Below are positions 26,603 through 29,871 of a stretch of 64,000 nucleotides of DNA, one piece after another. A program made the translations under genes and the position numbers. This DNA comes from Candidatus Nealsonbacteria bacterium. Lineage in GTDB: Bacteria > Patescibacteriota > Minisyncoccia > Minisyncoccales > JANBVM01. The first letter of the stretch is position 1. Every line of letters starts with the position of its first letter. The notes under the pieces were generated by a model. The model was not told where the DNA came from. It was given only the letters and a program-made list of their open reading frames with translations, and made no database searches. The stretch spans positions 45,944-109,943 of the forward strand of contig CP179887.1 in NCBI GenBank assembly GCA_047456295.1, given 5' to 3'.

Positions 26603-27082
26603 ATGTTAAATTCAAGAATCAATTTGAAAATAGCAGTAATTATCCTTGGCATTGCCATAATAGGAGCATTAATTTTAATTCAGAATGAGTATTCTTTAAC
26701 CAAAAAAGAGATAGATGATTTGATTGAAAATCAGTTTGTTGATTTCCAGTATCAGAAAAGAAAAGCTGTTCAGGAAGAAACAGTATATATCATTAATAAG
26801 GGAAATGAGGACGTGCTCTACTATGAAATAGTGCCTTCTGAAGACTCAACTGTCTTTTCCTTGCTGGAGGAGTTAAGCCAGAGAGAGAATTTTGAGCTAG
26901 AATCAACCTTATATGAGGGAATGGGCGTATTTGTTGAAAGTATTGATGGTCTCAGGAATGGAACCCAAGATAAATATTGGCAATACTGGGTTAATAATGA
27001 ATTGCCCCAGGTTGCTGCAGATAAAATGCAGATTAAGAAAAATGATGTTATTGAGTGGAGATTTGAGGCTTCTACTTTTTAG
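26603..27082 (+). CDS. Membrane-anchored DUF4430-like (transcobalamin beta-domain-like) protein
   Basis: N-terminal TM helix, then GVFVESIDGLRNGTQDKYWQYWVNNE...KNDVIEWRF, the typical DUF4430 core. Confidence 0.65.
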   Translation: MLNSRINLKIAVIILGIAIIGALILIQNEYSLTKKEIDDLIENQFVDFQYQKRKAVQEETVYIINKGNEDVLYYEIVPSEDSTVFSLLEELSQRENFELESTLYEGMGVFVESIDGLRNGTQDKYWQYWVNNELPQVAADKMQIKKNDVIEWRFEASTF

Positions 27083-27108
27083 TACGTATTTAACAATCCA
27101 TAAATTAA

Positions 27109-27678
27109 ATGGACTATAAAAAGCTTTTTTTTACTATTTTAATTATCATCTTCGGAGTTATTTTTCGCATTTTTTTGAATGAAACAATAGGTATTCCTAA
27201 TTTTGAAGCAGTAACTGCTTTATCTTTGCTTTCAGGGGTGTTTGTGGGAGGTGTTTACAGTATTTTAATTCCCCTTTCCATCATGTTTTTTTCTGACCTT
27301 TATTTTGGCAATACCTTTATTTATCTTTTTACCTGGTCAGCCTTTGTCTTGATTGGAATTTCTGGTAATATATTCAAGAGGGATTCTAAACATTATTTGC
27401 TTAAAATTACAGGTTCAGGAGTTTTGTCTGTTTTATTTTTTTATTTGTGGACGAATCTTGGCTGGTGGCTGATTTCTGGGATGTATCCCATGAGTTTTTC
27501 AGGTTTGATTCAATGTTATATTGCTGCCCTTGCTTTTTTAAAGAATCAACTTATTTCCGTGATTCTTTTTGTTCCTGGTTTCAATGTTATTTTTTCTTTT
27601 CTTATTGATAAGGTTTTTTCTTCTTCTCAAAAGGTAAAAAAGCATGGAACCTTTATTTTACCCGAAATTAATCATTAA
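27109..27678 (+). CDS. Multi-pass membrane protein, possible vitamin-uptake (ECF-S-like) component
   Basis: 5-6 predicted TM helices and a PNFEAVTALSLLSG motif. Adjacent to the DUF4430 gene. Function is inferred only. Confidence 0.4.
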   Translation: MDYKKLFFTILIIIFGVIFRIFLNETIGIPNFEAVTALSLLSGVFVGGVYSILIPLSIMFFSDLYFGNTFIYLFTWSAFVLIGISGNIFKRDSKHYLLKITGSGVLSVLFFYLWTNLGWWLISGMYPMSFSGLIQCYIAALAFLKNQLISVILFVPGFNVIFSFLIDKVFSSSQKVKKHGTFILPEINH

Positions 27679-27699
27679 GATTATATTATTTTAATTTAT

Positions 27700-28266
27700 A
27701 TGATTCTTTCTGACAGAGACATCAAAAAATATATTAAAATGGGTAAGATTAAAATAAATCCCGAACCTGATTTTAAAAAACAGTTAGGTTCAGCTTCTTT
27801 AGATTTAAGACTGGGAAATGAATTCAGGGTTTTTAACCACGTAAAAAAACCGTTTATTGATACCAAAGATCCAAAGACTTTTAAGAATATAACCCATTTG
27901 ATAAAGATAAAAGATAAAGAACCTTTTGTTTTCCAGCCAGGCCAATTTATTTTAGGGGTGACCTTAGAGGAGATTTCTCTGCCCGATGGCGTGGCAGCCA
28001 GGGTTGATGGAAGGAGCAGCATTGGAAGACTGGGAATTGTTGTTCATTCCACTGCCGGACATGTTGATGCCGGATTTAGGGGAAGAATTAATCTTGAGAT
28101 GGAGAATATTGGAATGATGCCCGTTCTTTTGTATCCTGGAACAAGGATCTGCCAGTTGGTTTTTGAATTGCTTTCTTCACCAGCTGAGATTCCTTATTAC
28201 AAAAAGAAAGGGGCAAAATATTTAGGAACAAAATCCCCGGAAGAAAGCAAGCTTGAAAAAATATGA
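27700..28266 (+). CDS. dcd: dCTP deaminase
   Basis: MILSDRDI start, SLDLRLG, GRSSIGRLG and PGTRICQLVF motifs. Confidence 0.9.
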   Translation: MILSDRDIKKYIKMGKIKINPEPDFKKQLGSASLDLRLGNEFRVFNHVKKPFIDTKDPKTFKNITHLIKIKDKEPFVFQPGQFILGVTLEEISLPDGVAARVDGRSSIGRLGIVVHSTAGHVDAGFRGRINLEMENIGMMPVLLYPGTRICQLVFELLSSPAEIPYYKKKGAKYLGTKSPEESKLEKI

Positions 28267-29093
28267 ATGATTGGCCCAAGGTAGAAGGAAGATATAAAGT
28301 GGGAAACAAGACCTCTCCCATTGCTGTTTGTACCAATGCCAGTATTGATGACATAGAGATTGACCTTAAAAAAATAGCAATTATTGGAAAGTGTGTTACA
28401 GAGAACATTGGCATTGAAAAGATAATCCAGAATATAGTTTCCAATCCTAATATAAGGTATTTGATTCTTTGCGGAAAGAAATCAAAGGGTCATTTTATCT
28501 CCCAGGCAATTGAATCTTTAAAGAAAAATGGCATTGACCAAGATAAGAGAATCATTGGAGCTGCAGGCAACATGCCTTATTTAAGAAATATTGATGAAGA
28601 ATTAATTGAAAGGTTCAGGAAACAGGTAGAAATAATCAATATGGCAGGGGAGACCAACAGCCAAAAAATTGAAACAATGGTAGATAAATTATTAGAAGGA
28701 AAAACAGAGGAGTTTAAAGGTGAAGCTGTTCAAATTAAAAAAACAGAGGAGATTGAAGCTAAACCAGCAAAATGGATTGCTGACCCTAAAGGTTATTTTG
28801 TAATATCCCTTAACAATGAAAGAACTAAGATTATGGTTGATCATTATATAAAAGGGGAGATCAACAAAAGAATTATTGGCAAGAATGCCAAGGAAATCTG
28901 TGATACCATTGCCAGATTAAAACTCATAGGAGAGTTTGAACAGTCTTTGGAGCATTCCATGTATTTGGGAAGAGAACTTGAAAAAGCAGAAATAGCCTTA
29001 AGGGAAAACCTTGATTTTGAACAGGACAAGGAATTAAAAATTAAAAAGCTTAAAAAACAAGAGCCAACCAATGAATACGGTTGGTTTGATTAA
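28263..29093 (+). CDS. MtrA-like (corrinoid-protein fold) plus DUF4346 fusion protein
   Basis: [12 protein letters not shown]...PIAVCT...[32 protein letters not shown] matches the MtrA family core. The C-terminal half (DPKGYFVI...[13 protein letters not shown]) is DUF4346-like. ATGA overlap with dcd. Confidence 0.65.
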   Translation: [276 protein letters not shown]

Positions 29094-29871
29094 AAATATG
29101 TATCAAACAAGAATAATTGCAGCTAAAAATTTAGGTCAGGCATGGGAAAGAGCCTGTATCTTAATAATGAAAGAAGGACATAATCGTTATGTTCAGGCCC
29201 CTGAATATAAAATTGAAACAAGGGATTTGCCTTTGATGATAAAGGTGTCAGAACCTTTTTCAGAGCCAAGACTTTCTTTGAAATCCAATGTTAAAAAAGA
29301 ACAGGCTGATGACTATTCCAAAAAACTGCTTTTTGGGAGCGGAAAAGAAAAAGAAAACAGTTTTGATTATACCTATTTTTCTCGGCTTCGTTGTTATCCT
29401 GATTGCCGGGTGAGGGCTTTTTTGCCCAGTATTACAGAATCAAAAGAAGAACTGGAACAGGAGGTAAGAAAGGTTTCTCCTGACGGTAAATGTCTGGTTG
29501 AGAGAATTGACCAGGTGGAAAAAGCAATTAAGATTTTAAAGAAAGATCCAACCCGTCGGACAGTTGTTCTTCATACCTGGATTCCTTACAGGGATTTGAT
29601 GAAATTTGGACCTAAGAGAGAAGACACCTCTTCTCCCTGCGTGGTTTTGGTTTATCCTCAACTGGTTGATGGGAAATTGCACATGTTTATTGTAATGAAA
29701 ACCAATGATTTATATAATGCCTGGCCTGAGAATGCCTATGCCCTTACCAATCTCCAGAAACATATAGCTGATGAATTGGGGGTTGAAACTGGAACCTATA
29801 CCCATTTTTCTGTGAGTATGCATATTTATAAAGACATGTTTGAGGAAGTAAAAAGGAAATTTAATCTTTAA
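29071..29871 (+). CDS. Thymidylate-synthase-like protein 3 (Asn at the specificity position; RR dyad present)
   Basis: DPTRRTVVLHTW, SPC(190)VV, MK(210)TND(213), WPEN(221) and SMHIYKD. Overlaps the upstream gene; an alternative ATG lies at 29098. Confidence 0.7.
   Translation: MNTVGLIKNMYQTRIIAAKNLGQAWERACILIMKEGHNRYVQAPEYKIETRDLPLMIKVSEPFSEPRLSLKSNVKKEQADDYSKKLLFGSGKEKENSFDYTYFSRLRCYPDCRVRAFLPSITESKEELEQEVRKVSPDGKCLVERIDQVEKAIKILKKDPTRRTVVLHTWIPYRDLMKFGPKREDTSSPCVVLVYPQLVDGKLHMFIVMKTNDLYNAWPENAYALTNLQKHIADELGVETGTYTHFSVSMHIYKDMFEEVKRKFNL

Follow-up and report, generated by a model that had tools for sequence, protein, structure and literature searches.

A conserved gene pair for an MtrA-DUF4346 protein and a thymidylate synthase-like protein in Candidatus Nealsonbacteria and related genomes: a possible corrinoid-dependent route to thymidylate

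Background

To our knowledge, only two enzymes, ThyA and ThyX, are established for the synthesis of thymidylate (deoxythymidine monophosphate, dTMP), and both draw the carbon from methylene-tetrahydrofolate (methylene-THF). In this study we analyzed a gene cluster of a Candidatus Nealsonbacteria bacterium (NCBI GenBank assembly GCA_047456295.1, contig CP179887.1) that lies within a stretch of 64,000 nucleotides (positions 45,944 to 109,943 of the forward strand; hereafter the window, whose first letter is position 1 for all coordinates given below). In this cluster a gene for a protein with an MtrA-like half and a DUF4346 half, which we call MtrAL, is followed by the third thymidylate-synthase-fold gene of the window, which we call TS3. 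An original prediction made from the letters of the window had proposed a system that methylates deoxyuridine monophosphate (dUMP) with a one-carbon unit delivered by a corrinoid or pterin carrier protein rather than by free methylene-THF, and the analysis reported here follows up that proposal.

Among the described routes to dTMP, ThyX is similar to the proposed system in that it avoids dihydrofolate through a second cofactor that acts as carrier, whereas its fold is unrelated, its cofactor is flavin adenine dinucleotide (FAD) and not a corrinoid, and methylene-THF is its direct donor. The methanogen-type thymidylate synthases (TIGR03283) are the curated family closest to TS3, and their Methanoplanus member carries an RSND…GAN motif with Asn; TS3 differs from them in scoring below the family cut-off, in a family-specific insertion, in Lys210 and in its hosts, which are bacteria of the candidate phyla radiation (CPR) and DPANN archaea and not methanogens. 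According to a review-level statement of 2022, the biochemistry of ThyA in methanogens is poorly known and the one-carbon donor is unsettled (PMC9012536). The AfhB protein of phage HY126 (PDB entries 9iqu and 9iqc) is another short thymidylate synthase fold in which folate is replaced by a different cofactor; it differs from TS3 in acting on deoxycytidine monophosphate (dCMP), with Asp at the specificity position, and in being a hydroxylase. The corresponding residue of TS3 is Asn, and its gene is paired with one for a corrinoid protein.

On the corrinoid side, the cobalamin-binding core of MtrA in the Mtr complex consists of His84 as the lower cobalt ligand, Glu54 as its hydrogen-bond partner and the GAIPF meander, and MtrH is the methyl-tetrahydromethanopterin (methyl-H4MPT):cob(I)alamin methyltransferase of the same complex (Wagner et al., PMC4915002). 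The system studied here shares with that complex the MtrA fold, the His-on ligand, the Glu partner and the meander, together with MtrH in a split operon, and it differs in that MtrAL is soluble, has a C-terminal DUF4346 and occurs in non-methanogen hosts with no mtrB-G and no coenzyme M (CoM) context, the acceptor enzyme being of thymidylate synthase fold and not MtrE/CoM. In the core methionine synthases (MesA/MesB, core MetE), a folate-independent acceptor takes a methyl group from a corrinoid protein; methylcobalamin is used in vitro, and MtrA is the predicted donor (PMC7005905; PMC7857596). The chemistry differs, since those enzymes convert a Zn-activated thiolate to methionine, whereas a Cys-activated C5 enolate of dUMP is proposed here to give dTMP. 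In terms of the systems that consist of a methyltransferase 1 (MT1), a corrinoid protein and a methyltransferase 2 (MT2), the dedicated corrinoid carrier would, by homology, be MtrAL.

The cluster combines members of known families in an arrangement familiar from corrinoid methyltransferase systems. In public annotations MtrAL is named "tetrahydromethanopterin S-methyltransferase subunit A" and TS3 "thymidylate synthase (methanogen type)", and our literature search found no publication linking MtrA-like proteins or DUF4346 to thymidylate synthase.

Results and Discussion

Conservation and fusion of MtrAL and TS3

The Pfam scans of the window covered open reading frames (ORFs) of at least 110 amino acids, minus those discarded as overlapping or spurious. 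All the genes that the original prediction had named were found among the ORFs of the window on the + strand, and the three at the center of the cluster, with the parts of MtrAL and TS3 discussed below, are as follows.

27700-28266, + strand: dcd, dCTP deaminase (TIGR02274 204.6 bits against a cut-off of 92.8; PF22769 2e-48)
28263-29093, + strand: MtrAL, MtrA plus DUF4346 (PF04208 E 2.9e-50, amino acids 2-164; PF14251 E 2.4e-21, amino acids 174-255)
28263-28754, + strand: MtrA-like, predicted corrinoid-binding domain of MtrAL, amino acids 1-164 (His77 codon 28491-28493; Glu47)
28782-29027, + strand: DUF4346 of MtrAL (Pfam 'PterinBD-DUF4346'), amino acids 174-255 (PF14251 2.4e-21)
29052-29093, + strand: conserved C-terminal tail of MtrAL, …[DE]x[YF][GD]W[FHY]D-COOH, after a Lys/Glu-rich linker
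29071-29871 (alternative start ATG 29098), + strand: TS3 (PF00303 1.6e-13, C-terminal half only; TIGR03283 142.3 bits)
29395-29502, + strand: insertion specific to the TS3 family, about 36-45 amino acids (…RLRC-YPDC…GKC…)

The three genes are tightly packed. The end of dcd overlaps the start of MtrAL by 4 nucleotides, as had been predicted, and the predicted overlap of MtrAL with TS3 amounts to 23 nucleotides if TS3 starts at ATG 29071, while a gap of 4 nucleotides results with ATG 29098, the start used by most homologues.

To describe the pairing in relatives, one genome per species was scanned, which gave 47 loci from Parcubacteria-type CPR and from DPANN archaea (Aenigmatarchaeota, Nanoarchaeota, Woesearchaeota and Pacearchaeota), 40 of which were informative in that at least 600 nucleotides of sequence followed MtrAL. 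The results showed that a TS3-type gene lies downstream of MtrAL on the same strand in 36 of these 40 loci, and within 400 nucleotides in 34 of them. The association is far beyond chance, and the adjacency, whose loss in relatives the original prediction had named as the finding that would speak against it, is kept in both CPR and DPANN genomes and extends to gene fusions. The recurrent CPR order is rplK-(DUF4430-DUF6580)-dcd-MtrAL-TS3-(tmk)-(deoC), with dcd upstream of the pair, whereas dcd lies downstream in DPANN loci. The conserved neighbors in the DPANN loci were SMC, ribosomal protein L10e, a GlmS-like protein and a nucleotidyl transferase, and no one-carbon enzyme was among them.

Several kinds of fusion were observed. 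In-frame dcd-MtrA-DUF4346 fusions were found in protein representatives P0100, P0103 and P0243 and in loci L013, L015, L016 and L018. An MtrA-DUF4346-TS (thymidylate synthase) fusion of 512 amino acids (P0333/P0390) lies in a DPANN locus (L048) between dcd and a gene for a kinase of the dNK/Thymidylate_kin family, and a fusion of this type is also present in L032. MtrA-TS-DUF4346 fusions of 473-495 amino acids form four representative clusters (P0278, P0293, P0303 and P0372), and the TS domain of P0293 clears the TIGR03283 cut-off (181.9 against 174.55 bits). A metagenome-assembled genome of Chloroflexaceae encodes a TS-DUF4346 fusion followed by dcd. The Cys and the Asn are present in every TS domain linked to MtrA or DUF4346, in a common (A/G)(W/L/F)PxN motif. 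As the adjacency is conserved and natural fusions occur, MtrAL and TS3 would work as one unit, and it is very likely that they form a physical or functional unit.

MtrAL as a corrinoid-carrier protein

The original prediction of an MtrA core and a DUF4346 in one protein was borne out by the Pfam matches given above. In the alignment with MtrA, His84, Glu54 and the GAIPF meander correspond to His77, Glu47 and Gly102..Pro105 of MtrAL, and across 55 homologues no variation was seen at His77, Gly102 or Pro105, with Glu47 at least 90% conserved. With cobalamin-binding MtrA the domain shares 45-55% identity and the Rossmann-like fold, while the whole protein scores 155 bits with the MtrA model TIGR01111, below the cut-off of 249. 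The C-terminal transmembrane anchor of MtrA is absent from MtrAL, whose C-terminus consists of DUF4346 and a disordered tail, and no mtrB-H genes were found among the scanned ORFs of the window. Judged by homology, MtrAL would be a soluble MtrA-type corrinoid carrier and not a subunit of the Mtr pump, and these conserved residues make it quite probable that it binds a corrinoid. There were 2034 homologues of MtrAL at E <= 1e-5, and no phage homologues were found.

The tail of MtrAL (…DEYGWFD-COOH) is predicted to be disordered, with a predicted local distance difference test score (pLDDT) below 50 for amino acids 264-276. The …GWFD-COOH ending is kept in the CPR homologues that were aligned and in the C-termini listed for the CPR loci, and it is missing from DPANN homologues. 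Many DPANN MtrA-DUF4346 proteins have an extra C-terminal extension of ~80 amino acids ending in …F(R/K)xxLRxxG(M/L)(C/H/S/Y)R(V/I/A)F-COOH, which was seen in loci L021, L026, L027, L034, L035, L037, L041, L042 and L045. The CPR and DPANN tails may be lineage-specific docking tails, the CPR tail being a candidate docking peptide.

The DUF4346 domain was modeled by AlphaFold2 (AF2) as three strands and two helices with pLDDT above 95; its conserved motifs are DPxGxF and HxxYLGxELxKAE, and the sequence-profile search returned no relative in PDB. A search for the domain gave 476 matches in 1.8 billion representatives. Among 47 long representatives, the fusion partners were MtrA (23), Pterin_bind of dihydropteroate synthase-like (DHPS-like) type (9), thymidylate synthase (7) and ferredoxin (7), and more rarely BtuF-like Peripla_BP_2 (2), core MetE (1) and CdhD (1). 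Two stand-alone DUF4346 genes follow a gene for the cob(I)alamin adenosyltransferase CobA/BtuR and lie beside a ribonucleotide reductase gene. The context of these stand-alone genes suggests that DUF4346 has a general corrinoid-handling role. The loci of ferredoxin-DUF4346 and DHPS-like-DUF4346 proteins were uninformative or pointed to other pathways, and no second DUF4346 was found in the window or in the CPR loci.

With respect to the stand-alone genes, we also observed that in L055 (1815-6672) and L056 (685-1844) the DUF4346 gene overlaps the end of the CobA/BtuR gene and is followed by a thioredoxin-like gene, and that in the L055 cluster nrdR and a gene for an ATP-cone ribonucleotide reductase lie upstream, with one for an FAD oxidoreductase on the downstream side.

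TS3 and its active site

The AF2 model of TS3 (pLDDT 85.3, pTM 0.85) has the ThyA fold, with a Foldseek probability of 1.0 to ThyA structures, a TM-score of about 0.6-0.68 and an identity of 16-21% in the Foldseek alignments. By sequence, TS3 does not reach the cut-off of any curated thymidylate synthase model: with TIGR03283 it reached 142.3 bits over positions 2-200 of 201, against the cut-off of 174.55, and with the ThyA model TIGR03284 it reached 36 bits, against a cut-off of 108. The best Foldseek match was phage HY126 AfhB, the TS-fold dCMP hydroxylase (9iqu/9iqc, E 3e-12), and one of the two entries was solved with FAD; a short TS fold that has swapped folate for another cofactor thus has a precedent in the best matches of TS3. 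The residues of the active site, all of them dUMP-binding except the catalytic Cys, were mapped by alignment with E. coli ThyA as follows.

ThyA Arg21: TS3 Arg39
ThyA Tyr94: TS3 Tyr102
ThyA Arg126'/127': TS3 Arg162/163
ThyA Cys146: TS3 Cys190, catalytic (codon 29638-29640)
ThyA Arg166: TS3 Lys210, changed
ThyA Asp169: TS3 Asp213
ThyA Asn177: TS3 Asn221, uracil-specifying
ThyA His207/Tyr209: TS3 His251/Tyr253

This mapping agrees with the original prediction, which had read an Asn at the specificity position (N221), an RR dyad (R162-R163), an intact Cys (C190) and Lys in place of R166 (K210). TS3 thus resembles ThyA (EC 2.1.1.45) in fold, catalytic Cys, dUMP-binding residues and its place in the pathway between dcd and tmk, the thymidylate kinase gene. 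It differs in having neither the W80/W83 folate loop nor the C-terminal lid (about 45 amino acids), in Lys for R166, in Asn and Glu at the positions of the folate contacts L172 and F176, in a Cys-rich insertion of ~40 amino acids, and in its obligate linkage or fusion to a corrinoid protein; the prediction is that its methyl group comes from a methyl-corrinoid and that no dihydrofolate is formed. As far as the alignment goes, TS3 has retained the half of the ThyA site that holds the nucleotide and is without the folate-contacting elements.

The insertion contains conserved Cys/His108, Cys112 and Cys141 and was modeled with lower confidence (pLDDT 63-84). It is absent from ThyA, from the two other TS-like proteins of the window and from the MtrA-TS-DUF4346 fusions, and its Cys residues are missing from P0333, whose parts are covalently joined. 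It is possible that the insertion is a metal site or a docking element.

The TS3 family is 56-84% identical across CPR and DPANN, and the product of TS3 is probably dTMP. Besides TS3, the window has two TS-like genes.

14770-15396: TS-like 1 (TS1), follows Ham1/RdgB at 14192-14764
16139-16789: TS-like 2 (TS2), follows an AAA_17, adenylate-kinase-like gene at 15673-16152

In both, the catalytic Cys is retained together with residues equivalent to R166/S167/D169, and Asp occupies the Asn177 specificity position, which makes the two poorer thymidylate synthase candidates. The best PDB sequence match of TS1 is AfhB (9iqu/9iqc, E 2e-8), and TS1 and TS2 may modify cytosine nucleotides at C5 without making dTMP. 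As a separate observation, a radical SAM protein is encoded at 17255-18250, 0.5 kb downstream of TS2.

Source of the methyl group

The most complete version of the system is a block of the type found in locus L047 (4399-10464), in which MtrA (194 amino acids), MtrH (PF02007, 1.5e-51), DUF4346 (96 amino acids) and a TS3-type thymidylate synthase follow one another, so that the MtrAL gene is split and MtrH is inserted; the genes in these loci are tightly packed, with ends that often overlap. The genes for methylenetetrahydrofolate reductase (MTHFR) and, on the opposite strand, serine hydroxymethyltransferase (SHMT) lie just upstream, and RadA and RPA genes identify the locus as archaeal. When metagenomes were scanned with the MtrH of L047, 27 further loci were found (L062-L088; MtrH 60-99% identical), in which MtrA-MtrH-DUF4346-TS, MTHFR and SHMT are all present as far as the contig reaches, and the most divergent of them continues into dcd. 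These 28 loci with MtrH belong to one lineage and thus amount to about one evolutionary observation, though a clear one. MTHFR is the enzyme that makes methyl-pterin, and a methyl group is a likelier carbon unit than a methylene group.

A related arrangement was seen in the Nanoarchaeota genome GCA_018815925.1 (L051/L052, 6555-10134), where MtrA (192 amino acids), MtrH and a core MetE-DUF4346 fusion are encoded together with MTHFR adjacent on the other strand. In this DPANN archaeon the operon is apparently a system for corrinoid-dependent methionine synthesis; it has the same parts list as the TS-containing block, and it agrees with the published prediction of MtrA as the methyl donor of core methionine synthases (PMC7005905; PMC7857596).

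Putative corrinoid uptake genes

Immediately upstream of dcd lie two genes, a DUF4430 protein and a membrane protein in the original prediction, and both assignments held in the Pfam scans, which thereby confirmed all three of the families (MtrA, DUF4346 and DUF4430) that it had named.

26603-27082, + strand: DUF4430 protein with an N-terminal hydrophobic membrane anchor (PF14478 E 1.1e-16)
27109-27678, + strand: DUF6580 multi-pass membrane protein (PF20221 E 1.8e-29)

The DUF4430 protein scored 61.4 bits with PF14478 (gathering score 23.8), a family to which the beta domains of intrinsic factor and transcobalamin belong. With a profile built from 8 orthologues, the best PDB match was the beta domain of gastric intrinsic factor (3kq4/2pmv), a marginal one (E 0.03). 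The sole PDB match of a profile of 10 DUF6580 orthologues was 6fnp_A (182 amino acids), over the full length with E 0.0026, while the single sequence gave E 1.5. 6FNP is the energy-coupling factor (ECF) vitamin B12 transporter ECF-CbrT of L. delbrueckii, and in Lactobacillus the cbrS-cbrT genes adjoin nrdJ, the gene for a B12-dependent ribonucleotide reductase (PMC5997447); we took chain A to be CbrT by its length of 182 amino acids. In both cases, uptake genes would stand beside a B12-using enzyme of deoxynucleotide metabolism. DUF4430 lies upstream of dcd in 7 related CPR loci, and DUF6580 is present in 10. By their sequence profiles, the DUF4430 protein resembles the transcobalamin/intrinsic-factor beta domain and putatively binds a corrinoid outside the cytoplasm, and DUF6580 is a putative CbrT-like S-component for corrinoid uptake. 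Owing to this likeness to a B12-binding domain and to CbrT, the two probably import a corrinoid, and these B12-import-like genes putatively share a transcription unit with MtrAL and TS3.

Proposed route to dTMP and alternative explanations

Based on these comparisons, the cluster may be a corrinoid-dependent three-component methyl-transfer route to dTMP with TS3 as the methyl acceptor, a reading to which we give about an even chance. The idea of dUMP methylation fed by a corrinoid or pterin carrier is supported by comparative genomics, namely the adjacency, the fusions, the MtrA ligands, the CbrT-like and DUF4430 proteins and the MtrH operon, and we would refine it in one respect: the one-carbon unit most likely still comes from methyl-pterin, loaded by an MtrH-type enzyme. 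Since the carbon would start from methyl-pterin, such a system would bypass methylene-THF and dihydrofolate, not pterins altogether.

According to homology and gene context, the DUF4430 and DUF6580 proteins would import the corrinoid and dcd would deaminate dCTP toward the deoxyuridine nucleotide. The MtrA domain would hold the cobalt in the His-on state through His77, backed by Glu47, and TS3 would act as MT2, the methyl-acceptor enzyme of a three-component corrinoid system, an assignment suggested by synteny and fusions and by analogy with the core MetE system. Cys190 would add to C6 of dUMP, the resulting C5 enolate would attack the methyl group of CH3-Co(III)-MtrAL, and elimination would give dTMP and Co(I). 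The Co(I) would be re-methylated from methyl-pterin by an MtrH-type enzyme, which in this CPR genome would be encoded elsewhere or replaced, while DUF4346 may serve as an accessory domain for corrinoid handling or partner docking, and tmk would phosphorylate the dTMP. The net reaction would be CH3-pterin + dUMP -> dTMP + H4-pterin, so that the reduction done in ThyA at the expense of tetrahydrofolate would shift upstream to MTHFR, and no dihydrofolate reductase would be needed because no dihydrofolate would be formed. Such chemistry is not without parallel: methylcobalamin methylates thiolates in MetH and MtaA, and TsrM follows a polar mechanism in which methylcobalamin is attacked by an sp2 carbon of tryptophan.

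Several results weigh against this route. We know of no enzyme that methylates dUMP from a methyl-corrinoid, and the conserved Asp213 corresponds to Asp169 of ThyA, a pterin contact, so that residual pterin binding by TS3 is possible. The equivalents of His84 and Glu54 are not conserved in most MtrA-TS-DUF4346 fusions, in which either the cobalt is His-off or the domain has another function. No MtrH, pterin-binding, MTHFR or reductive-activation genes were found in the 64-kb window, and when the MtrH and MTHFR of L051 were run by phmmer against the 47 genome loci, a homologue was found only in the archaeal L047 and in no CPR locus (at most ~16 kb each). Next to the single methanogen TS that was recovered (Methanoplanus, n=1) there is no gene for MtrA, MtrH or DUF4346, which makes an extension to methanogens speculation. 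The similarities to CbrT (E 0.0026) and to intrinsic factor (E 0.03) are weak, and no EcfA/A'/T energizing module, of the kind that ECF-CbrT has, was found among the scanned ORFs of the window, although it may be encoded elsewhere in the genome. A scan at the Rfam gathering threshold over the whole window returned tRNAs only and no B12 riboswitch. Finally, DHPS-like-DUF4346 proteins of Methanosarcinales adjoin a gene of the amino-acid-kinase family, and DUF4346 is therefore not exclusively corrinoid-associated.

Some of these features would fit other divisions of labor between the two proteins. With Asp213 and the general ThyA active-site scaffold kept, with SHMT, the maker of methylene-THF, adjoining the MtrA-MtrH-DUF4346-TS operon, and with ferredoxin-DUF4346 fusions in existence, TS3 could take its carbon from methylene-pterin while the corrinoid supplies reducing power or other catalysis, for example by reducing an exocyclic methylene intermediate in the manner of the flavin of ThyX, which would spare the pterin from oxidation. 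We regard this as unlikely, given that the methyl-level enzymes MtrH and MTHFR sit in or by the operon and that TS3 is without the folate-contact elements of ThyA; moreover, Co(I) as a stoichiometric two-electron reductant would demand very low-potential re-reduction at each turnover, and no reductase is conserved nearby. It is quite unlikely that MtrAL is a non-catalytic partner (B12 sensor, storage protein or chaperone, or scaffold) of a pterin-dependent methanogen-type TS, through which DNA-precursor synthesis would be regulated by B12. The MtrA catalytic-type ligand network is very strictly kept in the CPR/DPANN family, the MtrH inside the operon is a methyl-loading enzyme for which no regulatory role is known, the core-MetE system is built alike, and TS3 is without folate-binding elements, whereas the loss of the His/Glu ligands in some MtrA-TS-DUF4346 fusions, the cofactor-handling context of stand-alone DUF4346 with CobA/BtuR beside ribonucleotide reductase, and the lone TS of Methanoplanus would agree with such a partner.

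The remaining alternatives concern the product and the ligand. The TS fold also serves hydroxymethylases and a hydroxylase, the window has two more TS-like paralogues, and TS3 is below all the TS model cut-offs, so a C5-modified pyrimidine nucleotide other than dTMP (hydroxymethyl or another adduct), for DNA hypermodification or another pathway, might be considered; it is very unlikely in view of Asn221, which specifies uracil, of the dTTP pathway order that results from dcd upstream, tmk downstream or both flanking a fusion, and of the 56-84% identity across many minimal genomes, as expected for a housekeeping enzyme, the Asp-bearing TS1 and TS2 being the poorer dTMP synthase candidates. That the MtrA-like domain binds a pterin or folate instead, as a tight one-carbon carrier or as a substitute for dihydrofolate reductase (DHFR), would mirror the classical adjacency of thyA and folA and the DHFR-TS fusions, and Pfam named DUF4346 for its association with pterin-binding domains. 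This appears highly improbable for a domain that shares 45-55% identity with cobalamin-binding MtrA and has retained the His/Glu cobalt ligands, that is putatively co-transcribed with B12-uptake-like genes, and that is paired with MtrH in related operons. For the corrinoid-dependent methyl-transfer route itself, the broader claim, that MtrA-DUF4346 and TS3-type proteins represent a third mechanistic class, a B12-dependent, dihydrofolate-free, housekeeping dTMP route in much of CPR and DPANN and in some Chloroflexota, is in our view tentative and has slightly less than an even chance of being right.

Gene order and other features of the window

On the + strand between 25.4 and 33.4 kb, the order is secE, nusG, rplK, DUF4430, DUF6580, dcd, MtrAL, TS3, a small ORF, tmk, a deoC-like gene and gatB. 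The genes of this region that were not given above are as follows.

26171-26593, + strand: rplK, ribosomal protein L11 (PF03946 1.2e-28; PF00298 7.2e-26)
30574-31206, + strand: tmk, thymidylate kinase, dTMP to dTDP (PF02223 2e-43)
31203-31877, + strand: deoC-like aldolase, deoxyribose-phosphate aldolase family (PF01791 1.2e-10)

The gene rplK is the upstream anchor of the conserved order and precedes the module in 15 related bacterial loci, and the intergenic gaps from rplK through dcd are 9, 26 and 21 nucleotides. Downstream, tmk follows TS3 in 7 related loci and the deoC-like gene is found in 9 related CPR loci, a context of deoxynucleotide metabolism. The original prediction had placed the module behind rplK, where rplA would be expected, and had seen no folate-metabolism gene; both statements stood, as the Pfam scans returned neither rplA, after rplK or elsewhere in the window, nor a folate-metabolism gene. 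The rplJ-rplL genes are at 62471-63548, 36 kb from rplK, and ribosomal protein L1 has reportedly been lost in a Parcubacteria subgroup.

A promoter consensus scan of 25300-32000 was uninformative (23 promoter-like sites against 21.8 expected), and a terminator scan of the same region showed no convincing terminator inside the cluster. The small ORF between TS3 and tmk (30023-30370; 115 amino acids, GTG start, Lys/Arg-rich N-terminus) had no significant Pfam match (best E 0.015, below the cut-off). In related loci, a phmmer search with the annotated proteins of the window, this ORF not being a query, found nothing between TS3 and tmk, and the ORF may not be a real gene.

Some other features of the window were observed. 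The gyrB gene (21860-25378; 1172 amino acids) has, from a reading of the translation, a large insertion in the Toprim region that resembles an intein with a homing-endonuclease-like segment. There are two MreB paralogues (3471-4469 and 8267-9310) and two YceG (MltG-like) paralogues (42849-44177 and 60650-61690), and a MiaB-like radical SAM methylthiotransferase (UPF0004+TRAM; 34263-35648) adjoins miaA.

Conclusions

If the proposed chemistry holds, the system would be a new mechanistic class of thymidylate synthesis, which would bring a new cofactor logic to a heavily studied reaction and tie DNA synthesis directly to B12 at the molecular level. It would explain the wide spread of "MtrA" annotations in non-methanogenic ultra-small bacteria and archaea and would give DUF4346 a role as a new corrinoid-handling or docking domain common to several corrinoid methyl-transfer systems. 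It could also explain the donor of the methanogen-type thymidylate synthases, whose cofactor specificity is unsettled (PMC9012536). For the organisms themselves, dihydrofolate reductase would be dispensable, DNA synthesis would hinge on scavenged corrinoids, and an obligate corrinoid dependence of many CPR and DPANN symbionts would be predicted.

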